From contig CAXXVS010000002.1 of NCBI GenBank assembly GCA_963674755.2, positions 2,399,570-2,463,569 of the forward strand: DNA of 64,000 bases. Reading direction: 5' to 3'. Every line of letters starts with the position of its first letter. The stretch's first letter is position 1. Source of the DNA: Desulfobacterales bacterium (lineage in GTDB: Bacteria; Desulfobacterota; Desulfobacteria; Desulfobacterales; UBA5852). The translations under genes and the position numbers were made by a program. Shown here piece after piece: positions 12,283 through 57,118 of the stretch. The notes beneath the pieces were generated by a model. The model was not told where the DNA came from. It did no database searches and saw only the letters and a program-made list of their open reading frames with translations.

Positions 12283-12383
12283 ATAGATGATATTGCCGTG
12301 CCAGCCGGGACAAATTGCAGCCGGCACGATCGATGGCCTGACCGATAAGCGCTGTTAGAATGATTTATAAGGAGAAAAGCCCC

Positions 12384-13169
12384 ATGCAACGCACGATCAT
12401 GACGATCTTGGTGACAACGTCGATTATCCTGACCTGGTTCAGCCCCCCCCTCGTCAATGCCGCCGGCACCGCCCAAGCGACCGACAAGGCCGGTCAGGAA
12501 GGGATCTCGACCGATCAGAAGCTGCAACCCGAGATTGCGATACCGGACCCGCTGTTCACTTTCCCGAATGTGGTGGACGGTACCGAAGTGGTCCATGATT
12601 TCCCGGTCTACAACCGAGGGACAGGCGCCCTGGCCATTTCCAAAGTCCAAACCGGCTGAGGGTGCACGGCGGTCTCGTATCCGAGACAGATCCCCGCCGG
12701 CGGCGAGGGAACCATTCGCATCAAAGTCCATACCAGCGGTTATGGCGGCCACAACATCAAGAAGTCGGCCACGGTCTTTACCAACGATACCCGGCACCCG
12801 CAGCTGCGGCTGACCGTGGCGGGAAGCGTGGAGCGGTTCGCCGATATCCATCCCGAACGCGTTATTCTGCGGGGCTACGGGGGCCAGACCATACGCCAGG
12901 AAGTCGTGGTAACGCCCCGGGCAAGCTACCCCTTCAAGGTGACCGACGTCAAAGCCAAGACCGGCACCAACATCCGCATCGAGATGCACGAGCAGGACAG
13001 CCCGGAGGGCAAATCCTACGTCATTTCCGTTGAAAATACCAAAACCACGCCGGGCAAATACTACGATACCCTGCTGATTTCGACGGACAGCAAGCTCAAA
13101 CCGACCCTCCCCATCCATGTATACGGCACCATTGCCGCGGCCCAAAAGAAGGAAGCTGCCAAACCTTGA
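12384..13169 (+). CDS. secreted DUF1573-type protein with in-frame TGA at 12657-12659 (candidate selenocysteine codon, or nonsense mutation)
   Basis: Track ORFs 12360..12659 and 12816..13169 share one frame, and no other stop lies between them. AAGGAG RBS precedes ATG 12384 and a signal peptide follows. The TGA sits where DUF1573 proteins have the first Cys of S-C-G-C-T (here QTG-TGA-GCT). Confidence 0.6.
12667..12699 (+). other. SECIS-like interrupted hairpin downstream of the in-frame TGA
   Basis: CGGCGG-TCTCG-TATC-CGAGA-CAGATCC-CCGCCG. The base of the stem lies 8 nt after the TGA, and the apical loop lies 22-25 nt after the U of UGA. Confidence 0.4.
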
Positions 13170-13801
13170 ACATCAATCAGACGAAAGCGGTCATCTTCGA
13201 CTGCGATGGCGTCATGTTCGACACCACGGGGGCCAATTCCGCCTATTACAACCGCATTTTAAACCACCTCGGCCGACCGGAATTGACCCCCGAGCAGTTT
13301 GCCTATTGCCATATGCATACCGTGGACAATGCCCTCAAGTTTCTCTTCGAGGACGCCGGCCAGCTGGAGGCGGCCCTGGCCTTTCGCCGCACGATGGGTT
13401 ATCGGGACTTTATCCCCATGATGGAAATCGAACCCCACCTGAAACCGCTGCTGCGGCGATTGCGCCCCGGGATCCAAACCGCGGTGGGAACGAACCGCAC
13501 GGACACCATGGACGATGTCCTGGACGTCCACGGTCTGACCGACGACTTCGATCTGGTGGTCACCGCCTGCGATGTTCCCGCGCCCAAGCCGGCTCCGGAT
13601 ATCCTCAATCGCGCTCTGGAATATTTCCGGATCGACGCGGGGGAAGCCATCTACATCGGTGATTCAAGCCTGGACGAGCAGGCGGCCCGCGCCGCCGGCA
13701 TCCCCCTGATCGCCTACCGCAACCCCGAGCTGAAGGCCTGGCGCCACGTGGACCGCCTGGACGCGGTCCTCGACCTGCTGAACAGCACCTCCCCGGCCTA
13801 A
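13166..13801 (+). CDS. HAD-superfamily hydrolase (phosphatase-like)
   Basis: HAD motifs are present: VIFDCDGVMFDT (motif I), VGTNR (II), YIGDSSLD (IV). The only start upstream of motif I is TTG 13166, which overlaps the preceding stop. Confidence 0.75.
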   Translation: MNINQTKAVIFDCDGVMFDTTGANSAYYNRILNHLGRPELTPEQFAYCHMHTVDNALKFLFEDAGQLEAALAFRRTMGYRDFIPMMEIEPHLKPLLRRLRPGIQTAVGTNRTDTMDDVLDVHGLTDDFDLVVTACDVPAPKPAPDILNRALEYFRIDAGEAIYIGDSSLDEQAARAAGIPLIAYRNPELKAWRHVDRLDAVLDLLNSTSPA

Positions 13802-20473: not shown

Positions 20474-21677
20474 TTACAGCTCAGCGTGTTGGTTGCTTTG
20501 GATCTCGTCAATGCGTCGATCCGGGACTCCAGCCTCGCCAGCAAAATAGGGCCAACGGCGCACAGTTTCGATGATACGGTCCAGCATCTGACTTGCGCGT
20601 GCCTTTTTGATGCCAGCCGTACTGGCTAGCGCAAGCAGGTCCGCACGCTCGAACCCTTCTCTTTTTCCGTTGATACTCATTTGGTGTCTGCTCGTCCATT
20701 CGCCCGTGGGATTCCATGCGTACAAAACGTCGAAGGCCGGTGAGAGGGACCATTCTCCCCGCCGGTCCATGAGGAATGCGATGTTCTTGACGTGATCATC
20801 ACAGTTGCGACCCACTACATTGAAGAATGCCCGCAGCACTTGCTGCTGCATGTCCTTCCGGGATAGGCCCAAGCGCTGAATGACTTGGATGGCTTGTTCG
20901 TAGGAATAACTTGCGGGCTGCCTGTAATCGAAATGGGCCATAGCCCCGAGGGATTGCATATGAAGCTTTCCGCCCTGCTCTGTTCGATCGAACCGCTTTG
21001 TCATGAAATGGCTTCGGCCACCTTCTTGATGAAGGCGACAGGGCGTCATTTCTATGCCGGCTTCGCGGGCCATCAAGTGGTAGGCGTATTCGATCCTGCC
21101 GTAGCCCATCGGGCTTGTTATCTCGGCATCTCTGGTGCTGGAAACGCCGTCGAATTTCATAATCCAATGTTCGAAACCTTGCTCCGCACCAACTTGGCCC
21201 GAACGGAATTCGTTCGTTTCCGGATTCCAGGCCAAAATAGCCTTCGCCCTTGCACCGCCGGCGGAGGTCCCGACGCGCAAAATGTCGTTGATTGCTTCAC
21301 GATCGTCATCGCCGGAGAACACACCCCCCAGGCTGGCACGGTCGTTGAGAATCCGGTTGGCGAGGTCGACCAGGTTTGCAACCTCGACTGCGCGTTTGCT
21401 GCCCGGTGGGCCGAAAATAGCGGGCTCGAACTCGAGCGCCCCCATCCCCCTGCTTCCGATATAACAAAGCCGTTCCACGGGGTGAAAGCTTGTGGCGGTG
21501 CGCCCCTGAGATGCAAGCCAGGCGTCGATAATAGCATTACCGTATTTGTCTGGCAGGGCGTCGGCGAGCAGACCGGGCAGTCCCTTGAATGTGTTCCGCG
21601 CAAGCGCCGGGAATTCATAGGGGAACTCGGCAAGCGGCATCGCGATGGGGGCCAATTCAATACCGCTTCGCAGGAAA
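20474..21677 (-). pseudogene. hipA: hipA (Ser/Thr kinase toxin), 3' portion separated from its 5' end by an IS21-family insertion
   Basis: HipA motifs VGTSAGGARAKAIL and CDDHVKNIAFLM are present. The frame continues upstream of the track ORF to the IS junction (..FLRSGIELAPIAMPL..). Confidence 0.85.
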
Positions 21678-21933
21678 TGTTAATGGTCACTGCTATAGAG
21701 CCATTCCATGAGCACCCTAATGGGGCCACCCTGTGATCACCCTAATGAGGCCACTTTGTGAGCACCCTAATGGAGCCACTTGATGATCACCCTAATGAGG
21801 CCAGTTGGTGATCACCGTAATGAGGCCACCTGCCGCAGGGAAAAACGCGTATAAAACCAAAAAGCATCTCGGACCTTACATCCACAATCTGGTAAGTCTT
21901 TCCGGCAAACCACCAGCCGCCGGGAGGAATGCC

Positions 21934-23484
21934 ATGGCCAACAGGAGAATCGAGATGCATCAGTACCGACAAGTCATCCACCGTATGCGCCTTGGACAAA
22001 GCGACCGCGCCATCGCGAAAAGCCAACTGATCGGACGGACCAAATGCGCCGCCGTGCGGGAGGTCGCTGGGCAAAAGGGCTGGCTCAATAGCGGCCCGCT
22101 GCCCGACGACGAACAACTCGCCAAGATCTTCGAGGTTAAAAGATCCCCCGGCCAAAACCAAGCCCCGTTGACCCAGCCGCATGCGGATCAGATCAAGCAA
22201 TGGGTCGCAGAGGGCATTCAAGCCACGACGATCTATGAGGCCTTGGTCGGGCAGTTCGGATTTTCCGGCAGTTATTCCTCTGTCCGGCGCCAGGTAAGAA
22301 AGCTGCGCCACGCGAGCCCCAAAGCCTCTTGCGTTCTGGACTTTGCCCCAGGCGAAGCAGCCCAGGTTGACTTCGGCAAAGGGCCCACGATCAAGGACGT
22401 GTTTACCGGCGCGGTGATCAAGACCTGGATCTTTGTGATGACGCTGTGCTTCAGCCGCCACATGTATGCCGAGATCGTCACCGACCAGAAAGTTGCAACC
22501 TGGCTGGCCTGCCATCGGCGCGCATTCGCGTTTTTCAATGGCGTGGCGGCCAAAATGATCATCGACAATCCCAAGTGCGCCATCACCCGGGCCTGCTACA
22601 CCGATCCGGACGTTCAGCGCTCCTACGGCGAGCTGGCCGAAGGATACGGCTTTCTCATTTCGCCGTGTCCCGTCCGGGACCCGCAGAAAAAGGGCCGGGT
22701 CGAGTCCGGTGTCAAATATGTCAAAAACAACTTCGTGCCGCTTCGTACCTTCCGAACCCTGGCCGACGCCAACGAGCAGCTTGTCCGCTGGCTGCTGGAA
22801 AGGGCCGGCAACCGCATCCACGGCACAACCCACCGAAGGCCGCTGGAGATGTTTGCGGAGACCGAAAAACACTTTTTAAAGCCGCTGCCAGATGTTCCCG
22901 TGGAACTCGCCGTCTGGACCCGGGTCAAGGTGCACGGCAATTGCCATGTGCAGTTTGAAAAGGCCTACTACTCGGCGCCCTTCCGCTTGGTGCACCAGGA
23001 GCTGATGCTAAAAGCCACCGACACGACCGTAAAACTCTACCAGGACGTGAAGCTCGTGGCCACCCACCCGCGGCTCAAGCGCGCCGGCCAGCGCTCGACG
23101 GTCGACGGCCACATGCCGCCGGAAGCCCTGGCCTACAAGATGCAGGACCCACAGTGGTGTCTGAAGCAGGCCGAAGCCGTCGGCCCGGATTGTCATCGGC
23201 TCGTCCGCCGGCTGTTTGCCCACAAAGTGCTCGACAATCTGCGCGCGGCCCAGGGCGTAATCGGCTTGAGCAAAAAGTACGGCACGGCCCGCCTGGAAGC
23301 CGCCTGCCGCCGGGCGCTTCACTTCGACAACGTCAAATACCGTACGGTAAAAAGCATCCTGCATCAGGGCCTTGACCAGGCGCCGCTCTACGAGCAGCCC
23401 AACGTGATCCCGCTAGCTGCGGCGTACACCGGCAACGGCCGTTTTCTTCGCCACCAGGTGTACCGGGAAAGGAGGCCGTCATGA
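21934..23484 (+). CDS. istA: IS21-family transposase IstA
   Basis: GGGAGG RBS precedes ATG 21934. It has an N-terminal HTH and a DDE integrase-core region (..FAPGEAAQVDFG.., ..IIDNPKCAI.., ..PQKKGRVESGV..). Confidence 0.9.
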   Translation: MANRRIEMHQYRQVIHRMRLGQSDRAIAKSQLIGRTKCAAVREVAGQKGWLNSGPLPDDEQLAKIFEVKRSPGQNQAPLTQPHADQIKQWVAEGIQATTIYEALVGQFGFSGSYSSVRRQVRKLRHASPKASCVLDFAPGEAAQVDFGKGPTIKDVFTGAVIKTWIFVMTLCFSRHMYAEIVTDQKVATWLACHRRAFAFFNGVAAKMIIDNPKCAITRACYTDPDVQRSYGELAEGYGFLISPCPVRDPQKKGRVESGVKYVKNNFVPLRTFRTLADANEQLVRWLLERAGNRIHGTTHRRPLEMFAETEKHFLKPLPDVPVELAVWTRVKVHGNCHVQFEKAYYSAPFRLVHQELMLKATDTTVKLYQDVKLVATHPRLKRAGQRSTVDGHMPPEALAYKMQDPQWCLKQAEAVGPDCHRLVRRLFAHKVLDNLRAAQGVIGLSKKYGTARLEAACRRALHFDNVKYRTVKSILHQGLDQAPLYEQPNVIPLAAAYTGNGRFLRHQVYRERRPS

Positions 23485-24284
23485 ATCCGATACCCGATCT
23501 GACGCCCATGCTAAAGCAGCTTCGCCTGTCGGGAATCCTGGACTCCATCGAGTCGCGCAACCGGCAGGCCATCGAAAACAAGATGTCCTACATGGACTTT
23601 CTGGCCACCATCATCACCGACGAAATCGCCCGTCGCAACCAGAAGAAATTAGCCTCCGCCCTGCGGCGGGCCAACTTCCGTAACCAGAAAACCCTGGAAG
23701 AGTTTGACTTCGCCTACAATCCCAACATCAATCGCGCCCTGGTCATGGAGCTGGCCTCGTGCCGGTTCATGGCCGAGCGGGTCTGTGTGTTCATCATCGG
23801 CCCGTGCGGAACGGGAAAAAGCCATCTGGCGCAGGCCCTCGGCCACAGCGCCATTCGAAACGGGCACAGCGTGCTCTTTACTTCCGCATCCAAGATGCTC
23901 TCCCAGCTAAACGCCGCCCGGGCAACCAACGGCTACGATCGGCATTTTGCAAAGATCGCCGGCGTCGATCTCCTGATCATTGACGACTTCGGCCTTAAAC
24001 CCCTCAAACCCGCTCAGGACGAGGACTTCCACGATGTCATCTCAGAGCGCTACGAGCGCAAAAGCACCATCGTGACCTCGAACCTGGACATCCCGGAATG
24101 GACCGACGCCTTTCCAAACCGGATTTTGGGGGAAGCCACCGTCGACCGGCTGCGCCACGGTGCCTACACCGTCGTGCTGGAGGGCAAGAGCTATCGCTCC
24201 CCGCGACCGGTCTCCAAATCAGCTAAAAACACATGTCAAAAAACGCCCAAAAACGGCGGTTCGAAAGGGGGTGAAAAACAATAG
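23481..24284 (+). CDS. istB: IS21-family helper ATPase IstB
   Basis: ATGA overlap with istA. Walker A is GPCGTGKSH and Walker B is LLIIDDFG. Confidence 0.9.
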   Translation: MNPIPDLTPMLKQLRLSGILDSIESRNRQAIENKMSYMDFLATIITDEIARRNQKKLASALRRANFRNQKTLEEFDFAYNPNINRALVMELASCRFMAERVCVFIIGPCGTGKSHLAQALGHSAIRNGHSVLFTSASKMLSQLNAARATNGYDRHFAKIAGVDLLIIDDFGLKPLKPAQDEDFHDVISERYERKSTIVTSNLDIPEWTDAFPNRILGEATVDRLRHGAYTVVLEGKSYRSPRPVSKSAKNTCQKTPKNGGSKGGEKQ

Positions 24285-24375
24285 TTTGAAGCCGGTCCGA
24301 AAACCGCTTTTTGGTCGGTTTGAAATGGCCCCATTAAGGCGATCATAGGTGGCCTCATTAGGGTGATCATTGACA

Positions 24376-24478
24376 GGAAATCGGGTGAGTACTGGAAGAC
24401 CCCGATCTCCCGATCCTCAAGCCAAGTGACGGCGCCAATCAGACTCCCCCAGAGCATGACGCGGGCGTCATTGTTCAT
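24376..24478 (-). pseudogene. hipA: hipA 5' portion (N-terminal ~34 codons)
   Basis: MNNDARVMLWGSLIGAVTWLEDREIGVFQYSPDFL then runs into the IS end. Removing the IS and one GGAAA copy restores the frame ..SPDFLRSGIEL.. Confidence 0.8.
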
Positions 24479-24839
24479 GGTCGTCCTCTCCATCGCCCCA
24501 CGACCACACAGGAGGCTCTTTACTTACAGAGACAGGGCGTGCGCGCCTGCGCTCTCCCGTGCCAAGTCCGACCCGTTCGATCGGCCTCACGGCGGGGTCG
24601 GGCAACAAACTTTCGAGACCGTGCTGAATTTTCAGTGCAGTGAGGACACGAATGAATGTGTCCAGCGAAACCCCTTGTCCTTTCTCCAGCCTTCTTATGG
24701 TTCTATTCGAGACGCCGGCTTCCTCGGCGAGTTGCTGCTGCGTCATATTTCGGGAAAGCCTTATGCTCTGCAATCGCTTGCACAGGGCGGTCTCTATCTG
24801 ATCACTTGTTGCTATCGCGAAATCGATGATATAGGCCAT
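24468..24839 (-). CDS. hipB: XRE-family HTH antitoxin (HipB-like)
   Basis: LSRNMTQQQLAEEAGVSNRTIRRLEKGQGVSLDTFIRVLTAL is an XRE-type HTH. It lies immediately upstream of, and overlaps, the hipA start. Confidence 0.8.
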   Translation of the reverse strand: MAYIIDFAIATSDQIETALCKRLQSIRLSRNMTQQQLAEEAGVSNRTIRRLEKGQGVSLDTFIRVLTALKIQHGLESLLPDPAVRPIERVGLGTGERRRARPVSVSKEPPVWSWGDGEDDHEQ

Positions 24840-25090
24840 TTTTTGCCGCTTAAACTCCTTTTTTGGATTTTACCGACAATATTTTACCGATTGATCGGAA
24901 AAGCGCATCGAATCCATTAAGCGGCAATATATTAGCTATTAATCGCTAAAATGTCAATTAACCGGTAACATTTTACCCTTTTCCCCAATATGATCCAATC
25001 CCCTGGATGGCACACCGCTTGCGAGTTTAGTCGAGATAAAGAGGGAAATCAGGATCTCCCCCTACACCACCGGGCATAATAATCCTGTAA

Positions 25091-25175
25091 CGTGAATTTG
25101 GGATCTACCGGATGCTGGTCATCTACCTGGCAAACGGCGTCGGGGGCTTTTTCCTGCCCTATCTGGCCGGGATGG
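25091..25175 (+). pseudogene. ~85-nt fragment homologous to an internal part of the rhomboid gene (18161-18245)
   Basis: CGTGAATTTGGGATCTACCGGATGCTGGTCATCTACCTGGCAAACGGCGTCGGGGGCTTTTTCCTGCCCTATCTGGCCGGG versus CGTGAATTCGGGACCTACCGGATGCTGATCATCTACCTGCTAAGCGGCGTCGGGGGCTTTTTCCTGTCCTATCTGGCCGGG. Confidence 0.7.
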
Positions 25176-25178
25176 GCA

Positions 25179-25484
25179 CTATTCGATATGGGCTTTAGCG
25201 GTCTGGAGTGCCAAGTCCTTGTCCTTTGTGAACAGCCGCCACTTCATTTGCGATGAATGGATTCCGGCTTTCTTGTCCTGGCCTTTGCAGGAATACCAGT
25301 GCCCGAACCTTTCGACCTTGGAAAAGGGATGGTTGCCGGTGCACAAAGATCCGCAAGGATTATCCTCTTTGAAAAAAACGATTTCATCGGGGTCCGAATC
25401 AAAAGCGATGTCGGCCGGCAAATCGATTTGAGAGACATCCACCTTCTCGGCTACTTTTTCATCCAGCCAATCTGAAATTTTCAT
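25179..25484 (-). CDS. hypothetical protein (101 aa), fragments of which recur at 20318-20403 and 26183-26240
   Basis: Intact ORF MKISDWLDEKVAEKVDVSQIDLPADIAFDSDPDEIVFFKEDNPCGSLCTGNHPF... I recognise no domain. Confidence 0.5.
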   Translation of the reverse strand: MKISDWLDEKVAEKVDVSQIDLPADIAFDSDPDEIVFFKEDNPCGSLCTGNHPFSKVERFGHWYSCKGQDKKAGIHSSQMKWRLFTKDKDLALQTAKAHIE

Positions 25485-25633
25485 TGGGTTTATTTCTCTT
25501 TAAGGAATTCTACCGTGCTGCCTTTGGGGCGGCATGGTTCTCGCCGTCCCCAACAGCAGATGGTTGGGACCAAACACTGAAATATTGACAATTCGACCCA
25601 GTATGTACAATTAGTTGTACAGGAGATGCCGGA

Positions 25634-25885
25634 ATGGAAGCCATAACCTATACAGCAGCAAGGCAAAACCTTGCGAAAATAATGGAAAAAGTTTGCCGAG
25701 ACCGGACTCCGATGATTGTAACGCGAAAATCCTCGGAATCTGTAGTTATCATGTCTCTTGAGGACTATGAAGCCCTTGAAGAGACGGCCTATCTATTACG
25801 GTCTCCAAAAAACACCAGGCGGCTGATTGAATCCATCGCTCAACTCGAAAACGGCAAAGGAAACGAAAAGGGGCTTATTGAGTGA
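25634..25885 (+). CDS. yefM: Phd/YefM-family antitoxin
   Basis: MEAITYTAARQNLAKIMEKVCRDRTPMIVTRKSSESVVIMSLEDYEALEETAYLLRSPKN is the YefM pattern. Confidence 0.9.
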   Translation: MEAITYTAARQNLAKIMEKVCRDRTPMIVTRKSSESVVIMSLEDYEALEETAYLLRSPKNTRRLIESIAQLENGKGNEKGLIE

Positions 25886-26136
25886 AGCTCATTTTTTCAG
25901 ATCATGCCTGGAACGATTACCTCCATGGGCAAAAAACTGACCAAAAAATTCTTCGCCGTATCAACACCCTTATAATTGAAACAAAACGCAATCCTTTTGA
26001 GGGTATTGGTAAACCTGAACCTTTGAAACATGCACTTTCCGGGTATTGGTCCAGGCGAATAAATGGCGAACATAGATTCGTTTATAAAGTTTCAGAAGAT
26101 GCCATTCATATTGCTCAACTGAGATATCACTATTGA
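25882..26136 (+). CDS. yoeB: YoeB-family toxin
   Basis: GTGA overlap with yefM. MKLIFSDHAWNDYLHGQKTDQKILRRINTLIIETKRNPFEGIGKPEPLKHALSGYWSRRINGEHRFVYKV...LRYHY is the YoeB pattern. Confidence 0.9.
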   Translation: MKLIFSDHAWNDYLHGQKTDQKILRRINTLIIETKRNPFEGIGKPEPLKHALSGYWSRRINGEHRFVYKVSEDAIHIAQLRYHY

Positions 26137-26182
26137 TGAATCACCCGGCGTTGAGGCTATAACCTCTGGAGGGACAATGCCT

Positions 26183-26240
26183 GTGCAGAAAGATCCGCAA
26201 GGATTATCCTCTTTGAAAAAGACGATTTCATCGGGGTCCG
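26183..26240 (-). pseudogene. internal fragment duplicating 25339-25396 of the 101-aa gene
   Basis: GTGCAGAAAGATCCGCAAGGATTATCCTCTTTGAAAAAGACGATTTCATCGGGGTCCG differs from 25339-25396 at about 2 positions. Confidence 0.6.
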
Positions 26241-26557
26241 GAGCATGGGGGACCAGATAGGGTACGCCCATGACTTCATGCGTTACCGTTTATCGATCTG
26301 ACGCTCAATGGTGCAGCGCGCCACGGGCGTCGATTCGTGACTCTCTTGGCATAGCCTTTAACGTAGCAATAGGTATATACCCTATCAAAGCATAATCTCA
26401 TGGGCGTCATCCCCCAATGATAAAAATGCGCCCTTTTAGTACCCCTTCACCCACCGGGCGGGGTAACTCCATGGGCGCATAACATTTGTCGGGCTTATGA
26501 ATATATGAATGGACGTCCCGCAAAAGCTCCTATATTGTTTTCTAAACAGAAGAAGTT

Positions 26558-28699
26558 TTAGAATTTAGAAAGATCCTTAATCTTACCATCTCGTGTATCC
26601 AAAAAAATATTTATTGCCAGTTTTTCTTTATCATCTAAATCGCTAAAATGCGATTCCGTTCGAATTTTTCTAAGTCGTTTATCAACATCATTTAAATCTA
26701 GAAATGTTTCCACACTATCGAGACTAATCCTCCAACTAACACTTTCAACATAATCTGACATCCCATGGCTCCGGACATCAGAAAGAAAATGCTTTATGAA
26801 TCGTATAAGCCCCTCGTCGGTTTTAACTAAGGATTGAACATATTTTTGCGACTGCTCTGGAGCATCCCAGCGACGCCACAAAAATAATATAGAGAGGAGG
26901 TGGTTATGTTCTGTCAATTTCCCGCTCTCTGCCCACTCTTCAATTTTTGCAAGTGCTAATTTGACTAATTCATCAAGTTGATCAGAATTCACTGTCGTAT
27001 TTTCAGGCGGTTCTGGTTTTTCTTTAAAACCATATTTCCCGTGTTGCTGACACTGCACCCCAATTTCATTAACTACTGTATAAATGCTCATTTTTGCAAA
27101 ATTTATCGCACCAGCAAATATTTCGTAGCGTTTATTATGTTCTTTAAAACGATGACTCAATTGATAAAAAAGTCTTAGAATGCGCATCGGAGTACCTGTC
27201 GTGAAAAATCCACGTTCTACATCTGGAAATATGTCTCCAACGTCCATTAGCGCATTAATTATTGGAATTATATTATTCTCAGGTATATCCTCACGTGTGT
27301 AATCTTCCATTCTCTCTAAAAACCGAATAATTTTTTTATCTTGATTAAGTTTGATCAATTCACTGGAAAAAACTTCGGCATTATTTCCAGTTGATAGAAT
27401 TCTTTCAATCTCCCTTAAGGATATTTCATCTTTAGGAATAAATAATTTAAAATATGTGTCAAAAAGATCAGGGCTGCATATCCTCCCTTGCTTTCTCCAA
27501 GACTCAAGAAAACTGTGGCTGTAGCCAACATTTTCCATTTTAGGAAAAAGCCGCTGAAGGAAATCTCTTAAAATATCTTGTTTTAGCTCATTTATTTGCT
27601 CAAGAATCGCCTCAATTCGAGATTCTTCTTTTTGTGCTTTGTCTGAATTCCGGTAGGAATCTCTTACTCCGGAAAAAAGATCTCTATTTTCTCTGATGCT
27701 TCTATATAAATCAGGAATGAAAACCTGAACAGCTGTTATAGCAATGAAATCAATTGGATTAACTTCATCTTTAACTAAACTAAACCCGAAGCTTAATGAA
27801 TTTAGATATCGATTAACATCTCTTATATTGTGGAATAAATACCTAAGACCACTGTGATAGATATTACCCCAATATGTTTTATCCCATCGCCCCTCCGGGA
27901 TGTCTTTAATAAGTTCATCCAATTTTTTAAAAAGAAAATGCTCTACTTCCTTTTTGGATATTTGTGGGATTTCAAAAGGAACTTGAATAACTTTTTCCAA
28001 GTAATCATTTCCAGAGCCTTCTTGAACTTTTTTTAAAGCATTTATGACTACATCCTTATCAAAGGATAGTAGATAAATTGTATTCGGAAAATCAGCTAGC
28101 GATTTTACGAGCTGAAATATTTGCCTAATTTCAGTATTATTTAGTCTATCTATATCGTCTATGACTATAATAATTTTTGTATCAAAATCGCTGAGTAAGA
28201 CATTAAGGTCGCTTTTTATGGCACTCAGGTTTTTCAATGATTCTTCCCCGGCTTTTTCTGACGCCTTTCCAACCCCTTTTAGAGCCTTCGCGATTTTTCC
28301 GATAAATGAAATTGTAGGTACATACTCAAATGGTTCAAAAAACCTTGAATATTTTTGAATAGTTTGTCCTATTTTTATGTGTTTTTCAGCTGAATCATCT
28401 CTACATAGAACCAAGGAAAGTTCGTTAAAGAATTGTTGGATAAGTTGGTTTTGGTCCGAAAAATTCCACGGATTGAATTTTATTATCAAGGGTTTTTTTT
28501 GTGACGAAAAAGATCGTATTTCCTCCAAAGTCAAATTAATGAGTGATGTTTTTCCGGAACCCCATTTGCCAAACAATCCTACAGAAATACTATCTTCTAA
28601 TTCGTAACTCAAAACTGCTTTTGCAAGTGCTCTCGCAAATGAGTGCCGACCAAGTAGATCTTCACTATGGCTATTTATTGGCTGATCTGCGCTAAACAT
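26558..28699 (-). CDS. KAP-family P-loop NTPase (713 aa)
   Basis: The N-terminal DLLGRHSFARALAKAVL...VGLFGKWGSGKTSLINL (Walker A) and IIVIDDIDRL (Walker B) are spaced as in KAP NTPases. The C-terminal half is long, helical and unassigned. The gene is strikingly AT-rich compared with the flanks. Confidence 0.85.
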   Translation of the reverse strand: MFSADQPINSHSEDLLGRHSFARALAKAVLSYELEDSISVGLFGKWGSGKTSLINLTLEEIRSFSSQKKPLIIKFNPWNFSDQNQLIQQFFNELSLVLCRDDSAEKHIKIGQTIQKYSRFFEPFEYVPTISFIGKIAKALKGVGKASEKAGEESLKNLSAIKSDLNVLLSDFDTKIIIVIDDIDRLNNTEIRQIFQLVKSLADFPNTIYLLSFDKDVVINALKKVQEGSGNDYLEKVIQVPFEIPQISKKEVEHFLFKKLDELIKDIPEGRWDKTYWGNIYHSGLRYLFHNIRDVNRYLNSLSFGFSLVKDEVNPIDFIAITAVQVFIPDLYRSIRENRDLFSGVRDSYRNSDKAQKEESRIEAILEQINELKQDILRDFLQRLFPKMENVGYSHSFLESWRKQGRICSPDLFDTYFKLFIPKDEISLREIERILSTGNNAEVFSSELIKLNQDKKIIRFLERMEDYTREDIPENNIIPIINALMDVGDIFPDVERGFFTTGTPMRILRLFYQLSHRFKEHNKRYEIFAGAINFAKMSIYTVVNEIGVQCQQHGKYGFKEKPEPPENTTVNSDQLDELVKLALAKIEEWAESGKLTEHNHLLSILFLWRRWDAPEQSQKYVQSLVKTDEGLIRFIKHFLSDVRSHGMSDYVESVSWRISLDSVETFLDLNDVDKRLRKIRTESHFSDLDDKEKLAINIFLDTRDGKIKDLSKF

Positions 28700-28734
28700 A
28701 TTTAATTAACTCGTGATTTATTTTAGACATTTAA

Positions 28735-28784
28735 CGGCTTGGCTGTGGGGCGCGCGGATTTTTGCGCGTTCCACAGCCAAGCCG
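28735..28784. repeat. GC-rich nested hairpin between the 178-aa gene and the KAP NTPase gene
   Basis: CGGCTTGGCTGTGG-(GGCGCGCGGATTTTTGCGCGTT)-CCACAGCCAAGCCG. The outer stem is a perfect 14 bp, and the loop itself contains CGCGC..GCGCG. Confidence 0.7.
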
Positions 28785-28794
28785 ATTGTTAGCT

Positions 28795-29331
28795 TCAATC
28801 TTTAATGAGTTTATTGTGTGGAATATCAACTGCGTACCAAGCAGAGCATTCAACAGGTTCAGGATTGCTATTTTCAGCAATTATATAGTGTAAATCAATT
28901 GTTTCGCCTGCAGGAATTTTCTTCAGTGGAACATTTAGCCCGTCTTTTTGATATTCTACGAGTGCCAATGGGTCTTCCAGAAATTCAATCCAAGGCATTC
29001 GTCTCGATAGGGCTTCACCATCCTCAGTTCCAACGACAACAATTCCTTGCTTCCCTTCCCAAGATTGAGCATCCAGACACTCACCTGATTCCGGTCCTCC
29101 CTTTATTTCTGTGTCGAATCGGCAGCTAAAATCGAGGTGTTCGAAGCCTGTCAATGAAAATGCCCGCAAGAAAACAGCCCTAACTCGTTGCACTGACATG
29201 CCTGGTGGTAGGATCGGTTCAGGTTTCAGAACCTGAAGCTCGATTGTATATTCGCCGTCAAGACTGGGCACGGCTCGTACAATAAAATGTATCTGCCCCA
29301 GAGCTGTAGATAGTGTTTTTGAGTTTTCCAT
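28795..29331 (-). CDS. hypothetical protein (178 aa) upstream of the KAP NTPase
   Basis: Clean ORF with intermediate GC. I recognise no domain. Confidence 0.55.
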   Translation of the reverse strand: MENSKTLSTALGQIHFIVRAVPSLDGEYTIELQVLKPEPILPPGMSVQRVRAVFLRAFSLTGFEHLDFSCRFDTEIKGGPESGECLDAQSWEGKQGIVVVGTEDGEALSRRMPWIEFLEDPLALVEYQKDGLNVPLKKIPAGETIDLHYIIAENSNPEPVECSAWYAVDIPHNKLIKD

Positions 29332-36557: not shown

Positions 36558-37889
36558 ATGAAAAACGCCGACCTCCTGCTGACCAACGGCTGGGTGCTGA
36601 CCATGGATGACCGGCGCCGGGAATTCAACCCCGGTTTCGTGGCGCTGCAGGGCCCCCATATCGCGGCCGTGGGTCCCATGACCGAGGCCGCCCAATGGAC
36701 GGCCGCCCGGACCCTGGACGCGGCCGGCGGGATCATCCTGCCGGGGCTGGTCAATGCCCACACCCACGCGGCCATGACCTGCTTCCGGGGCATGGCCGAC
36801 GACCTGCCCCTGATGGAATGGCTGCAGGAGCATATCTTCCCGGCCGAGGCACAACTCGACCACGACAAGGTCAAGACCGGCACCCTGCTGGCCTGCGCCG
36901 AAATGATCCTCTCCGGCACCACCTGTTTCTGCGACATGTACCTCTTCGAAGATGCCGTGGCCGAAGCGGCGCATCAGGCCGGCCTGCGGGCCGTGGTGGG
37001 CGAGGTCCTCTACGATTTCCCCTCCCCCAACTACGGCCCCCCCGAGGCCGGTCTGGTCTACACCGAACGGCTGATCGACAAATGGCGTGGGGAGCCTCTC
37101 ATCACCATCGCCGTGGAACCCCACTCCCCTTATCTCTGCGCCCCCGATCTTCTGAAAAAGGCCGACGCCATCGCCCGGCGGCATGGGGTGCCGTTGGTGA
37201 TTCACCTGGCGGAAACCCGCGCCGAAGTGGCAACCATGCAGGAGCGCTACGGCCTCACCCCGGTGGGTCACCTGGCCGATCTGGATCTGCTCCACCCCGG
37301 GCTGCTGGCCTGCCACGGGGTGATGCTGACCGATGACGACATGGACCTGCTCAAAACCCACGACGTCAAAATCGCCCACAACGCCGAAAGCAATATGAAG
37401 CTGGCCTCGGGCATCGCCCCGGTGCCCCGGCTGCTGGAGCGGGGCATCTGCGTGGCCCTGGGCACCGACGGCTGCGCCAGCAACAACAACTTGGACCTGA
37501 TGAGCGAGATGGACACGGTGGCCAAGCTGCACAAGGTCAACACCCTGGACCCCACCGTGCTGGATGCCGAAACCGTCCTGGCCATGGCCACCATCGAGGG
37601 CGCCCGCGCCCTGGGCCTGGCCGACCGCATCGGCTCCCTGGAAGCCGGCAAGGAGGCCGACCTGATCGTGATCGACACCCGCCAGCCCCACCTGACCCCC
37701 CTCTATCACCCCGCTTCGCATCTGGTCTATGCGGCCCGGGGCGGTGACGTCGCCACCAGCATCATCCGGGGCCAAGTGGTCATGGAAAACCGGACCCTGC
37801 GCACTTTGGACCGCGAGCAGGTCATGCAGGATGTCAACCGCCTGGCGGCTGAAATTCGCGAAGCATTGCCCGATGCCGTGGCGCGCTGA
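36558..37889 (+). CDS. mtaD: 5'-methylthioadenosine/S-adenosylhomocysteine deaminase-type amidohydrolase
   Basis: Amidohydrolase motifs PGLVNAHTHAAM, HLAET and GTDGCASNN match the MtaD/SsnA subgroup, and the context supports the call. Confidence 0.75.
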   Translation: MKNADLLLTNGWVLTMDDRRREFNPGFVALQGPHIAAVGPMTEAAQWTAARTLDAAGGIILPGLVNAHTHAAMTCFRGMADDLPLMEWLQEHIFPAEAQLDHDKVKTGTLLACAEMILSGTTCFCDMYLFEDAVAEAAHQAGLRAVVGEVLYDFPSPNYGPPEAGLVYTERLIDKWRGEPLITIAVEPHSPYLCAPDLLKKADAIARRHGVPLVIHLAETRAEVATMQERYGLTPVGHLADLDLLHPGLLACHGVMLTDDDMDLLKTHDVKIAHNAESNMKLASGIAPVPRLLERGICVALGTDGCASNNNLDLMSEMDTVAKLHKVNTLDPTVLDAETVLAMATIEGARALGLADRIGSLEAGKEADLIVIDTRQPHLTPLYHPASHLVYAARGGDVATSIIRGQVVMENRTLRTLDREQVMQDVNRLAAEIREALPDAVAR

Positions 37890-37943
37890 TGGCCTTGCCT
37901 GGGCCTGTTTGAAGTGGTTGAAAACCCAAGATCAGGTTCGAGA

Positions 37944-39299
37944 ATGTACGATCTTCTGATTTGCAATGCCTGGGTGGTCACGGTCAATGACCGCTGGGAG
38001 GTGATCCCCAACGGCCTGATCGGCATTGAAGGCGATCGAATCGTCTATGTTGGTCCGGAGAAGCATCCGCGGCCGGCCGCCCGGGAAACCATCGATGCCG
38101 ATCAGGGCATCGTGCTGCCCGGCCTGGTCAATGCCCACACCCACCTGCCCATGACCGTCTTCCGGGGGCTGGCCGACGACCTCCCCCTGCACACCTGGCT
38201 GGAGGAATACATCTTCCCGGCCGAGGCGGCCCATATCACACCGGATACGGTCCACTGGGGCACCCGGCTGGCCTGCGCCGAACTGCTCCTGACCGGTGTC
38301 ACCACCTGCTGCGACGGCTATTTCCTGGAAGACGTCGTGGCCCGGGCGGTGGCCGCCACCGGCCTGCGGGCCGTCCTGGGCCAGGGGGTGATCGATTTTC
38401 CGGCCCCGGGCGTGCCGGATCCGTCCCGCAACGTGGCCGCCGCCATGGATTTTGTTGACGCCTGGCAAAACCGCACGCCCCTGATCACCCCTTCCATCTT
38501 CTGCCATTCCCCTTACACCTGCAGCGACGCAACCCTGGCCCGGGCCAAGGCGGCCGCAACGGCCAAAGGGGTTCTCTTCCAGATCCATGTGGCCGAAACC
38601 CGGGCGGAATACGCCCCGGCCGAAGGGGGCGGCCAACCGGAGCCTCCCGTCGAACGGCTGGCGCGCCTGAACCTGCTGGATGCGGCCACCCTTCTGGTGC
38701 ACGGGGTCTGGCTCACCCCCCAAGAGATCGACATCGTCGCCCAGAAGGGATGCGGCATCGTCCACTGCCCGGAGAGCAACATGAAGCTGGCCGCGGGCAT
38801 CGCCCCGCTGCCGGCCTTTTTGCAGGCCGGCATCCCGGTGGGTCTGGGTACGGACGGCTGCGCCAGCAACAACGACCTGGACCTGCTGCGGGAAATGGAC
38901 ACGGCCGCCAAACTGCACAAGGCCGCCGGGGGAGACCCCACGGCCCTGCCGGCCGCCCGGGTACTGGCCCTGGCCACCCGGGAGGGCGCCCGGGCCATCG
39001 GCCTGAGCGACCGCATCGGGTCCCTGGAGGCAGGCAAACAGGCCGATCTCGTCATTCTGGACAGCGCCCACCCGGCCCTGTGCCCGGTCTACAATCCTGT
39101 CTCCCAGGCCGTCTACGCGGCCGGCGGGGACGCGGTGCGGGACACCATCGTGGCCGGACAGGTACGCGTGCGTCATCATCATATGACGGACGGCCATCTC
39201 GATGACGTCATGGATCAGGTGCGGGCCATCGGCCGCCGCATCCAAAACGCCCGGCGCCAACTACCCCGGCAGACTGACGGAAAGGGAGACCCGACATGA
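37944..39299 (+). CDS. second MtaD-like amidohydrolase paralogue
   Basis: Same motif set (PGLVNAHTHLPM, HVAET, GTDGCASNN), in tandem with the first copy. The start is set to MYDLLICNAWVV. Confidence 0.75.
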   Translation: MYDLLICNAWVVTVNDRWEVIPNGLIGIEGDRIVYVGPEKHPRPAARETIDADQGIVLPGLVNAHTHLPMTVFRGLADDLPLHTWLEEYIFPAEAAHITPDTVHWGTRLACAELLLTGVTTCCDGYFLEDVVARAVAATGLRAVLGQGVIDFPAPGVPDPSRNVAAAMDFVDAWQNRTPLITPSIFCHSPYTCSDATLARAKAAATAKGVLFQIHVAETRAEYAPAEGGGQPEPPVERLARLNLLDAATLLVHGVWLTPQEIDIVAQKGCGIVHCPESNMKLAAGIAPLPAFLQAGIPVGLGTDGCASNNDLDLLREMDTAAKLHKAAGGDPTALPAARVLALATREGARAIGLSDRIGSLEAGKQADLVILDSAHPALCPVYNPVSQAVYAAGGDAVRDTIVAGQVRVRHHHMTDGHLDDVMDQVRAIGRRIQNARRQLPRQTDGKGDPT

Positions 39300-41008
39300 C
39301 CATGGAACACCTCATCGCCGTGGCCCGCGGAGACCAGCCGGCCGATCTGCTCCTGCGCAACGCCAAGCTCGTCAACGTCTTTTCCGGGGAGATCCTGGAC
39401 ACGGACATCGCTGTGGCGCAAGGCCACATTGCGGGTTTCGGCCCCCGGGAAGCCCGGGCCGAGATCGACCTGGGCGGACGCTTCCTGGCCCCCGGCTTCA
39501 TCGACGCCCATGTCCACATCGAAAGCGCCATGGCCTCCCCCACCGAATTCGCCCGGGCCGTGCTGCCCCACGGCACCACCACGGTGGTGGCCGACCCCCA
39601 CGAGATTGCCAACGTTCTGGGGCGGGCGGGCATCGATTACATGCTGCAGGCCACCGAGGGGCAGCCCCTGCAATTTTTCTTCAGCCTGTCCTCCTGTGTG
39701 CCGGCGACGACCATGGAAACCGCCGGTGCCACGTTGACCGCCGCCGATCTGGCCCCCCTGATGCCCCATCCCCGGGTGGTGGCCCTGGCGGAAGTCATGA
39801 ATTTCCCCGGCGTCATCCAGGGGGATCCCGACATCCTGGCCAAAATCCGGGCGGCCCACACCGCCCGCAAACGGGTGGACGGCCATGCCCCGGGGGTGGC
39901 CGGGAGGGCCCTGGACGCCTATATTGCCGCCGGCATCGCCAGCGATCACGAATGCATCGACCCGGAAGAAGCCCTTGAGAAGTTGCGGCGCGGGATGCAC
40001 ATCATGATCCGGGAGGGCACCGGCGCCAAAAATCTGGCCGCCCTGGTGGACATCATCCGGCCGGAGACCGTCCACCAGCTCATGTGGTGCACCGACGACC
40101 GCCACCCCCATGACATTTTGGCCGAAGGCCATGTGGACGCCATCGTGCGGCAGGCGGTCCGGCGGGGTGTGCCCCTGCCCCTGGCCATCCGCATGGCCAC
40201 CTTGAACCCGGCCGTCTATTTCGGCCTGCCCCGCACCGGTGCCCTGGCGCCCGGTCAGCGGGCCGACATGGTGGTCTTCAGCGATCCCACGAATCCCGTG
40301 GTGGAAATGGTCTATGCCGGCGGGCAACGCGTGGCCGAAGACGGGGTGCTACTGGAAACGACCGTCTTCCCCGATGCGGTTCCGGTGGCGCCCGCTATGC
40401 AGGTCGACCCGGCGCAGCTCGACTTTCGCCTGGTCGCCCGGGGCGAACGGATGCGGGTCATCGACATCGTCCCCGGGCAGATCGTCACGCGCCAAATCAT
40501 CGCCGAAACGCCGGTAGCCGACGACCACGCGGTGGCGGATCCCCAAAAGGACCTTTTAAAGATCGCCGTAATCGAGCGCCATCAGGGGACCGGGCGCATC
40601 GGGATCGGGTTTGTGCGGGGCATGGGGCTGCGCAAAGGCGCCCTGGCCTCCAGCGTGGCCCATGACAGCCACAACATCATCGTGGTGGGTGCCAGCGATA
40701 AAGACATGGCCGCCGCCGCCCGCCGGGTGATTGCCATGCAGGGGGGGCTGTCCGCAGCCGCCGATGGCCACATCCTGGCGGAACTGGCCCTGCCCATTGC
40801 CGGCCTCATGTCGCCGGACCCGGTCCGGACGATCCAGGACCGGATGACCGGCCTGATTGCCGCCGCCCAGTCTCTGGGCACACCCCTGGAGGACCCGTTC
40901 ATGATCTTGTCATTTCTGGCCCTGCCCGTGATTCCGGAACTCAAGATCACCGACCGGGGCCTGGTGGACGTAAACCGCTTCGAACCCGTTGATCTTTTCC
41001 TTCAATAG
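39296..41008 (+). CDS. ade: adenine deaminase
   Basis: 570 aa with PGFIDAHVHIESAM and a long C-terminal domain typical of Ade. ATGA overlap with the preceding gene. Confidence 0.85.
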   Translation: MTMEHLIAVARGDQPADLLLRNAKLVNVFSGEILDTDIAVAQGHIAGFGPREARAEIDLGGRFLAPGFIDAHVHIESAMASPTEFARAVLPHGTTTVVADPHEIANVLGRAGIDYMLQATEGQPLQFFFSLSSCVPATTMETAGATLTAADLAPLMPHPRVVALAEVMNFPGVIQGDPDILAKIRAAHTARKRVDGHAPGVAGRALDAYIAAGIASDHECIDPEEALEKLRRGMHIMIREGTGAKNLAALVDIIRPETVHQLMWCTDDRHPHDILAEGHVDAIVRQAVRRGVPLPLAIRMATLNPAVYFGLPRTGALAPGQRADMVVFSDPTNPVVEMVYAGGQRVAEDGVLLETTVFPDAVPVAPAMQVDPAQLDFRLVARGERMRVIDIVPGQIVTRQIIAETPVADDHAVADPQKDLLKIAVIERHQGTGRIGIGFVRGMGLRKGALASSVAHDSHNIIVVGASDKDMAAAARRVIAMQGGLSAAADGHILAELALPIAGLMSPDPVRTIQDRMTGLIAAAQSLGTPLEDPFMILSFLALPVIPELKITDRGLVDVNRFEPVDLFLQ

Positions 41009-41074
41009 GAATAGCAAAAACGGTAGCGGCCGAGGCCACTACCGTTGATTGGAACGATCGATATAAGAGAGGAA

Positions 41075-42184
41075 ATGCGTTTCATGCAAGATACCCCACA
41101 ACCCTTGCGCCCCATTTGGATAGACGACGCCAGCGGGGACGTCAACGTGATCGACCAGCGCAGCCTGCCCCACGAACAGGTGGTATTGGAGCTGCAGACC
41201 GTGGACGACATCATCTATGCCATCCAGGAAATGGTGGTCCGGGGGGCGCCTTTGATCGGCATCACCGCGGCCTATGGCGTCTATCTGGCCGTTAAAAACG
41301 CCGCCGCCGGTTCCGGCCCGGCGGATTGGACGGCCGAATGCGAACGCGTCAAGGCCGCCCGCCCTACGGCCGTCAACTTGCAGTGGGCCGTGGAGCGGGT
41401 CATGGCGGACATCAGGAACCGGCCGGCCGGCCAGCGAACCGAAGCGGCCCGGAAAATCGCCGGCGTGATCGCCGAAGAAGAAGCCGACAACTGCCGCCGG
41501 ATCGGCCGCCACGGGGTGCGCCTGATCGAGGCCCTCAGCCAGGAGAAAAGCGGTGCCGCCGTCAACATCCTGACCCACTGCAACGCCGGCTGGCTGGCCA
41601 CCATCGAATACGGCACCGCCACGGCCCCCATCTACACCGCTTACGACCAGGGCATCGACGTGCATGTCTGGGTAGACGAAACCCGCCCCCTCAACCAGGG
41701 CGCCCGCCTGACGGCCTGGGAGCTGGGCCGCCACGGGGTTTCCCATGCCGTCATCACGGACAATGCCGGCGGTCACCTCATGCAGCACGGCCTGGTGGAT
41801 ATGGTCATCGTGGGAACGGACCGCACCACTTGCACCGGCGATGTGGCCAACAAAATCGGCACTTATCTCAAGGCCTTGGCCGCCCGGGACAACGAAGTGC
41901 CCTTCTATGTGGCCCTGCCGTCCAGCACCTTCGACTGGCGCCTGCGCGACGGGGTGCGGGAGATCCCCATCGAAGAGCGGGACCCGGATGAGGTCCGCTA
42001 TATTCAGGGATATTCCGAGGATGGCCTGCGCAGCGTGCTCGTGCCGCCCGCCAGCAGTCCGGCGGCCAATTATGCGTTTGACGTGACCCCGGCCCGGCTG
42101 GTGACCGGTTTCATTACCGAACGGGGCGTCTGCGCGGCCACCGAAGCCGCGATTCGCGCCCTGTTCCCCGAGAAAGCGACGTAG
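41075..42184 (+). CDS. mtnA: S-methyl-5-thioribose-1-phosphate isomerase (eIF-2B-like family)
   Basis: VIDQRSLPHE, VVRGAPLIGITAAYG and VGTDRTTCTGDVANKIGTY are present. The start is ATG 41075 or 41084. Confidence 0.85.
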   Translation: MRFMQDTPQPLRPIWIDDASGDVNVIDQRSLPHEQVVLELQTVDDIIYAIQEMVVRGAPLIGITAAYGVYLAVKNAAAGSGPADWTAECERVKAARPTAVNLQWAVERVMADIRNRPAGQRTEAARKIAGVIAEEEADNCRRIGRHGVRLIEALSQEKSGAAVNILTHCNAGWLATIEYGTATAPIYTAYDQGIDVHVWVDETRPLNQGARLTAWELGRHGVSHAVITDNAGGHLMQHGLVDMVIVGTDRTTCTGDVANKIGTYLKALAARDNEVPFYVALPSSTFDWRLRDGVREIPIEERDPDEVRYIQGYSEDGLRSVLVPPASSPAANYAFDVTPARLVTGFITERGVCAATEAAIRALFPEKAT

Positions 42185-56885: not shown

Positions 56886-57118
56886 CGGAAGGCCGCCCGT
56901 TTATAAAAAACAGTCGGCCCACGGAAAGGAGGTGATGGCCGGAAACCGAACCCAACGGGCCGCCCGGGGCGGTCCGCCTGTCACGGCAGGGCGCCGGAAG
57001 GAAACCTTGCATTTCGCCAAAGCCAAACCCCGGGCAACCGGGGGACGGAAAGCCGCGGGTCCCGCGGGGACGGCCGGGCTGCCGGAATCTCTGACAATCT
57101 GTATTTCAACCGCCTGCG

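Follow-up and report, generated by a model that had tools for sequence, protein, structure and literature searches.

The gene at 12384-13169

We analyzed a stretch of 64,000 nucleotides (nt) from a Desulfobacterales bacterium (GenBank assembly GCA_963674755.2, contig CAXXVS010000002.1, positions 2,399,570 to 2,463,569 of the forward strand), hereafter the window, and focus on one of its genes that is interrupted by an in-frame TGA codon. Translation of 12360-13169 on the forward strand contains a single internal stop, the TGA at 12657-12659. Two open reading frames (ORFs), 12360..12659 and 12816..13169, lie on either side of it in the same frame, and the 156 nt between them are free of stops, just as a preliminary description of this DNA had reported. 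That description also assigned the read-through product to DUF1573, and this assignment holds: with Cys placed at the TGA, a PF07610 (DUF1573) domain spans residue 92, the position of the TGA, with a score of 71 bits against a gathering score of 26.1. A second Pfam model, PF22544 (HYDIN/VesB/CFA65-like immunoglobulin [Ig]), was also matched. We consider ATG 12384 a more likely start than ATG 12360, because an AGGAG lies 9 nt upstream of the former and an orthologue (locus L001, 82% identical) starts at the equivalent Met; the TGA and the stop of this orthologue are likewise equivalent to those of the window gene. By inspection, the translation begins with the features of a signal peptide, namely a basic n-region, a hydrophobic core and an A-x-A-like site. 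The features of the locus are collected in Table 1.

Table 1. Positions of the gene, its RNA and protein features, and the adjoining downstream gene in the window
Feature	Position	Strand	Description
Putative ribosome-binding site	12370..12374	+	AGGAG, 9 nt upstream of ATG 12384; read from the sequence
OS_HP2 / DUF1573 selenoprotein gene (very probable)	12384..13169	+	261 codons + stop, one in-frame UGA (predicted selenocysteine) at codon 92
Predicted Sec-type signal peptide	12384..12461	+	MQRTIMTILVTTSIILTWFSPPLVNA; cleavage after VNA, then AG; judged by inspection
DUF1573 / OS_HP2 Ig-like domain with U-G-C motif	12555..12830	+	residues 58-149; PF07610
UGA predicted to be read as selenocysteine, residue 92	12657..12659	+	first residue of the U-G-C motif (12657-12665)
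Hairpin 1, SECIS-like	12672..12687	+	conserved 5-bp stem 12672-76 / 12683-87, 6-nt loop 12677-82
Hairpin 2	12691..12710	+	UCCCCGCC-GGC-GGCG(A)GGGA; 8 bp, bulged A, apical loop GGC 12699-12701
Second Ig-like beta-sandwich domain and short tail, C-terminal	12831..13166	+	no Cys/Sec motif; from a homologue model
True stop codon TGA	13167..13169	+	shares bases with the TTG start (13166) of the HAD-family hydrolase gene that follows
HAD-family hydrolase gene	13166-13801	+	TTG start 13166 overlaps the selenoprotein stop (TTGA)

Conservation of the TGA codon

Related loci were gathered in two collection scans that used an alignment of post-TGA fragments. The resulting set, numbered L001 to L142 with L001 and L002 being one place, draws 61 loci from species-representative genomes of GTDB and 80 from metagenome contigs. 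The homologous codon is TGA in 142 of 142 loci, where it is followed by G-C-[T/S/A], and this holds at protein identities down to ~40%. Among the carriers are complete genomes of cultured Desulfosarcina, namely D. alkanivorans PL12 (L024), D. widdelii PP31 (L048) and D. variabilis (L036), and a D. cetonica draft genome (L013). On either side of the TGA, 128 distinct orthologues have an open frame; no locus has a frame that is broken near the site, and the median identity of these orthologues to the window is the same, 0.48, for the 50 upstream residues and for the downstream part. Short frames are limited to contig ends and to four Desulfobulbaceae loci with a single-domain version of the protein. 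In these four (L059-L062, from Desulfobulbaceae / Desulfoprunum metagenome-assembled genomes), the frame ends 59 codons after the selenocysteine (Sec) codon, so that the second Ig-like domain is missing while the TGA and the hairpin are kept.

Two homologues have Cys at the Sec column, encoded by TGT in P0001 and by TGC in P0014. Both read S-C-G-C-T, and the motif in the window is TG-U-GCT. Cys in these homologues and Sec in the window therefore form the Sec/Cys pair that is expected of a selenoprotein, in agreement with the proposal of the preliminary description that the TGA stands at the first Cys of a C-G-C motif.

The same description had named a recent nonsense mutation or a sequencing error as the alternative, in which case the gene would be broken at 12657, possibly as a pseudogene, and the two ORFs would be remnants. 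A single window does not by itself separate such a mutation or error from a recoded codon, and its hairpin taken alone folds no better than shuffled sequence. However, the TGA recurs in every one of the 142 loci, which come from independent assemblies and include the complete cultured Desulfosarcina genomes, both flanking frames are open and conserved in the 128 orthologues, and the downstream hairpin is under selection at the RNA level (see below). With these data, the chance that the TGA is a recent mutation or an error becomes vanishingly small.

We also considered whether the TGA is decoded as something other than Sec, either as Trp under genetic code 4 or 25, or through hairpin-stimulated near-cognate read-through. 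Two database entries, P0006 and P0007, are translated with W at the Sec column, and the DNA of P0006 has TGA there. The W in P0006, however, is a gene-caller artefact on a short contig, and the homologues have Cys, not Trp, at this column. TGA is an ordinary stop in the window, where it ends 15 of the 30 Pfam-supported genes, this gene included, and codes 4 and 25 are therefore excluded. In addition, NF041425, the NCBIfam model that the product matches, is curated as a selenoprotein family. Decoding as a residue other than Sec is thus very improbable. Judged by conservation across the related loci, it is almost certain that the in-frame TGA codes for selenocysteine, in a protein that is predicted to be exported.

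A third explanation is that the locus makes two separate products, a 91-residue exported peptide that ends at 12659 and a second protein that starts from GTG 12816, with the hairpins serving as a regulatory or pausing element. Automatic ORF calling yields exactly these two ORFs, and many database entries are C-terminal fragments of 147-174 aa. These fragments begin at differing V/M codons just past the TGA and are therefore caller artefacts, as are most protein-database entries of the family. Against two products, one Pfam/NCBIfam domain (residues 54-150) spans the TGA, and the 156-nt stretch between the ORFs is not only in frame and stop-free but also encodes the most conserved part of the protein (GCTAVSYPRQIPAGGEG). 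Furthermore, the Cys-form P0001 is an unbroken chain of 240 aa, which our model shows as two complete domains. We hold it highly unlikely that the two ORFs are expressed as separate proteins, and we treat them below as one gene with a Sec codon.

RNA structure downstream of the TGA

The preliminary description had placed a single interrupted hairpin at 12667-12699 (CGGCGG/TCTCG-TATC-CGAGA/CCGCCG). The complementary arms are present, and 12660-12712 folded alone does form the interrupted hairpin (-21.7 kcal/mol), whereas the minimum-energy fold in a 66-nt context consists of two separate hairpins. To compare these structures across the family, we used a gap-free alignment of 112 distinct sequences that covers 75 nt around the TGA, and the counts and column numbers below refer to it. 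The inner stem of the proposed hairpin and its SECIS-like (Sec insertion sequence) spacing were upheld: this stem, which we designate hairpin 1, is paired in 99.8% of cells and covaries. The outer stem, 12667-72 / 12694-99, was rejected, since pairing reaches only 77% of its cells and, at two of the six columns, fails in 85 and 47 of the 112 sequences. What had appeared to be its 3′ arm is really the 5′ arm of a second element, hairpin 2.

The covariation in hairpin 1 is concentrated at columns 26/39, where 77 sequences have U-A, 30 have C-G, 5 have U-G and none is unpaired; columns 28/37 show one switch from U-A to G-C. No shuffle reached the observed covariation, and controls with slid partners were 30-54% paired. 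When pair 26/39 was traced on a neighbour-joining tree of the protein regions outside the hairpin, at least 10 changes of state were counted, so the covariation is not one inherited event. These changes couple a Val/Ala replacement (GUC/GCC) with a synonymous Arg change (AGA/AGG), and in L124 and L125 an Arg-to-Gly replacement (GGG) still pairs through a U-G wobble. Synonymous positions tell a similar story. Third-codon positions in the stem are frozen (C in 111/112 at column 27, G in 112/112 at column 36), and positions just outside it are free to vary, with entropies of 0.8-1.9 bits; the Arg codon of the 3′ arm is AGA or AGG in 111 of 112 sequences, compared to 7% of Arg codons in the genes of the window. 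By this comparative evidence, the inner stem is a selected RNA structure. In the window a sixth pair, G12677-C12682, leaves a UAUC loop, and this pair is present in 50/112 sequences alone.

One divergent orthologue, L126 (metagenome contig JFJP01045653.1), has PPGEEG in place of PAGGEG and keeps the TGA. In the register of the family, hairpin 1 is unformed there; a 4-bp stem at a shifted position (GCCG...CGGC) could form instead and may be an alternative SECIS solution.

Hairpin 2 is paired in 96.1% of cells and folds at -11.7 kcal/mol alone. It encodes the invariant peptide I-P-A-G-G-E-G and has almost no double-sided covariation, and for that reason the protein constraint on P-A-G-G-E-G is not fully separable from constraint on the RNA. 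The choice of codons is nonetheless narrow. Ile is ATC in 109/112 sequences, whereas an Ile eight codons later is ATT in 52, ATC in 32 and ATA in 22. Pro is CCC or CCT in 111/112 and never CCG, the codon that accounts for 40% of Pro codons here and for 79/79 Pro codons inside hairpin 1. Glu is GAG in 108/110, against 46% genome-wide, and Gly is GGA in 92/112, against 9% genome-wide. As far as the aligned sequences go, the frozen synonymous sites of hairpin 2 are unexplained by codon usage, and hairpin 2 is possibly part of the recoding signal.

Comparison with bacterial SECIS elements

In the minimal SECIS of Escherichia coli fdhF, 11 nt separate the UGA from the stem. The arrangement here is alike, with a stem-loop lying within the ORF immediately 3′ of the UGA and 12 nt to the conserved stem of hairpin 1. 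The bacterial SECIS (bSECIS) consensus, from the bSECISearch model credited to Zhang & Gladyshev 2005 and as summarised in PMC13188914, has a loop of 3-9 nt, a stem of 4-16 bp, a G in the first two loop positions, 16-37 nt from the UGA to the loop, and a minimum free energy of -7.5 kcal/mol or lower. In its 5-bp reading, hairpin 1 of the window falls inside these values, with the loop GUAUCC beginning with GU, a spacing of 17 nt and an energy of -8.3 kcal/mol (12671-12688), although the loop G is patchy across the family; with or without the sixth pair the loop is small (4-6 nt). There are also differences from the fdhF/bSECIS model. The stem shared by the family is 5 bp alone, a G opens the loop in just 50 of the 112 sequences, and we saw no conserved bulged U. 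Another difference is the additional, more stable conserved hairpin 2, whose loop reads GG[C/U] across the family and lies 39 nt after the UGA, just outside the consensus range.

These differences raise the possibility that the OS_HP2 family, to which the gene is assigned below, uses a non-canonical two-hairpin recoding signal. In one version, SelB would recognise hairpin 2 and hairpin 1 would act as a spacer or ribosome pause; in the other, the SelB of these Desulfobacterales would accept a hairpin 1 loop without G (N-U-W-Y-N-C), as occurs in over half of the family. The frozen synonymous sites are compatible with such a signal and fall short of proof, because the hairpin 2 peptide is invariant and covariation there is almost nil. 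We offer this proposal tentatively and consider it rather doubtful as it stands; if true, either version would extend the bacterial SECIS model.

Family identity

With Cys substituted for Sec in the query, the product matches NF041425 (NCBIfam, "OS_HP2 family (seleno)protein") at 144.7 bits against a cutoff of 100 (E = 8.6e-43), with residues 54-150 aligned to profile positions 2-98 of 98. The passages on OS_HP2 in Zhang & Gladyshev 2007 (NAR 35:4952; PMC1976440) present it as one of six new selenoprotein families from the metagenome of the Olavius algarvensis symbionts; the delta-1 and delta-4 symbionts had a single gene apiece, no homologue with Cys was found at that time, and the TGA was followed by SECIS-like stem-loops. 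A "DUF1573 domain-containing protein, pfam07610, motif UGC" appears in the selenoprotein tables of two reviews, from 2022 (PMC9312934) and 2026 (PMC13188914), and both credit that entry to the 2007 paper. We equate OS_HP2 with the DUF1573 entry because of the NCBIfam match and the matching place of the entry in both tables.

Taken together, the product encoded at 12384-13169 of the window very probably belongs to the known OS_HP2 family of DUF1573 selenoproteins, whose motif is U-G-C. The gene shares with OS_HP2 the same domain, above both curated cutoffs, a U-G-C motif with Sec first, a host of the Desulfobacterales type within the Deltaproteobacteria, and an in-ORF SECIS-like hairpin directly after the UGA, and we found no difference that sets it apart from the family. 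The preliminary description had spoken of an undescribed selenoprotein. The identification as a selenoprotein is correct but not new, as the family has been known since the 2007 report and has an NCBI model.

Protein architecture and predicted function

Cys-containing DUF1573 proteins are widespread and carry a C-G-C motif, and to our knowledge no function is known for any of them. They have the same Ig-like domain (PF07610) as the window protein and the same position of the paired-thiol motif, and differ from it in carrying Cys (TGC/TGT) where the window has Sec. We modelled the structure of the natural Cys-form homologue P0001 (240 aa, 48% identical to the window protein). The model has a mean predicted local distance difference test score (pLDDT) of 89.2 and a predicted template modelling score of 0.71, and consists of two all-beta Ig-like domains after a low-confidence N-terminus (pLDDT below 50 for residues 1-10, averages of 51-62 for residues 11-30). 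The second all-beta domain has a pLDDT above 90, and across the 128 orthologues the corresponding region is 41-86% identical. The C-G-C motif of P0001 (residues 74-76) sits in a turn between strands 65-72 and 77-81. A sequence search of the PDB gave no matches, so there is no solved structure related by sequence. Searching the PDB by fold with the P0001 model returned generic tandem Ig/ASH-like folds alone, with TM-scores of ~0.3-0.4; these were HYDIN-type ciliary central-apparatus proteins and an uncharacterised Porphyromonas gingivalis protein, 2qsv.

From the translation and the homologue model, the product would be a precursor of ~27 kDa that is exported to the cell envelope by its N-terminal Sec-type signal peptide. 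Our best guess is that the Sec-Gly-Cys turn most likely forms a reversible selenenylsulfide, and so a redox centre, or binds a soft metal. This guess is drawn from the motif together with general knowledge of CXC and Sec/Cys redox sites.

Genomic context

The gene order priA - selenoprotein gene - HAD-family hydrolase - polA is conserved, with priA upstream in 97/141 loci and the HAD gene directly downstream in 123/141; many of the loci without the full priA/HAD context are short or cut by a contig end, though the reasons were not tallied per locus. The TTGA overlap between the stop of the selenoprotein gene and the start of the HAD gene suggests that the two may be translationally coupled. 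The P0001 loci (L143-L145) sit in another neighbourhood, one with HGD-D / BcrAD_BadFG activase-type genes, FlpD and an HdrA-like oxidoreductase, and not in the priA-HAD-polA order.

Within the window, a translational GTPase at 42397-44430 was considered as a candidate SelB and rejected for its EF-G architecture. Inspection against the ORF list gave no convincing second selenoprotein gene in the window, where TGA-joined ORF pairs of the same frame are shadow frames or adjacent genes. The first two of three consecutive amidohydrolase-family genes at 36558-42184 (+) form such a pair, with a TGA between them, and were rejected as a selenoprotein because each has a complete Amidohydro_1 domain. The third gene of this trio has an adenine deaminase C-terminal domain, and the trio is followed by an IF-2B-family gene that is methylthioribose-1-phosphate isomerase-like.

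Other features of the window are apart from the gene described here. A c-di-GMP-I-GGC riboswitch aptamer (RF03167, 66.1 bits against a gathering score of 59) is found at 57013-57087 (+). It lies ~100 nt upstream of two large proteins (57186-58292 and 58445-60514) whose N-termini carry prepilin-type methylation motifs. The region 20474-29331 is a mobile or defence-like patch that includes a HipA-family kinase toxin (20474-21655, -), an IS21-type pair of a Mu-like/rve transposase and an IstB ATPase (21805-24284, +), and a KAP-family P-loop NTPase (26558-28699, -). Lastly, a 580-aa ORF at 48358-50100 (+) joins LytB/IspH (residues 3-274) to a UbiA prenyltransferase (residues 307-540) in an apparent fusion.

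Discussion

By the general bacterial mechanism, we propose that the UGA at 12657-12659 would be decoded as selenocysteine during translation. The mRNA just downstream of the UGA, inside the coding sequence, would fold into a SECIS element, which would recruit SelB-GTP-Sec-tRNA(Sec) once the UGA reaches the A site. The exported product would then consist of two Ig-like beta-sandwich domains, and in the first of them a tight turn between two strands would hold Sec-Gly-Cys. Indirect support comes from D. widdelii PP31 (orthologue L048), for which 38-39 selenoprotein genes are on record (PMC12013277, PMC13326102).

Several observations weigh against this model. The 64-kb window holds no selA, selB, selD or tRNA-Sec: no tRNA genes were found in it, and no Sel-type Pfam domains in the 40 ORFs scanned. 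The hairpin is matched by no Rfam model, whether at gathering thresholds across the whole window or at permissive E-values across 12560-12800. The local fold is no better than chance for G+C-rich sequence (z = -0.81, with 45/200 shuffles folding at least as well), and since a single-sequence fold gives no signal, it is because of the comparative data that we judge the inner stem to be above chance. G occupies the first loop position of hairpin 1 in 50/112 sequences alone, so over half of the sequences miss the consensus rule of a G among the first two positions. The close Cys form P0001 keeps hairpin 1 unchanged (GUCUC...GAGAC) next to its TGT. Co-occurrence of the hairpin with TGA, which the preliminary description had put forward as informative, is consequently mixed: the distant Cys form P0014 lacks both hairpin 1 and the SYPRQ peptide that encodes the hairpin, as expected, whereas P0001 departs from the pattern. 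Hairpin 1 in P0001 is apparently a fossil SECIS that a recent change from Sec to Cys left behind. In the parts of the selenoprotein literature searched, selenium is not experimentally demonstrated in any OS_HP2 protein, and the family rests on computation. Finally, the fold search gave no functional lead to a redox or metal role, which we infer from the motif alone.

For annotation, we recommend a single selenoprotein gene in place of the two ORF fragments. Most database entries of the family are cut off at the TGA or wrongly translated with Trp. Compared to the published passages on OS_HP2, the details added here are the near-universal TGA in the 142 sampled loci, the gene order priA - gene - HAD - polA, the two adjacent conserved hairpins, the single-domain version in Desulfobulbaceae, and a Cys form that keeps the hairpin. 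The biological addition is small, as the family, its U-G-C motif and its coding of Sec have been catalogued since 2007. While no surprise for a specialist, the close synteny with priA, a HAD hydrolase and polA in Desulfobacterales, and the architecture of two Ig domains in a protein that is predicted to be exported, provide testable starting points for work on this family.

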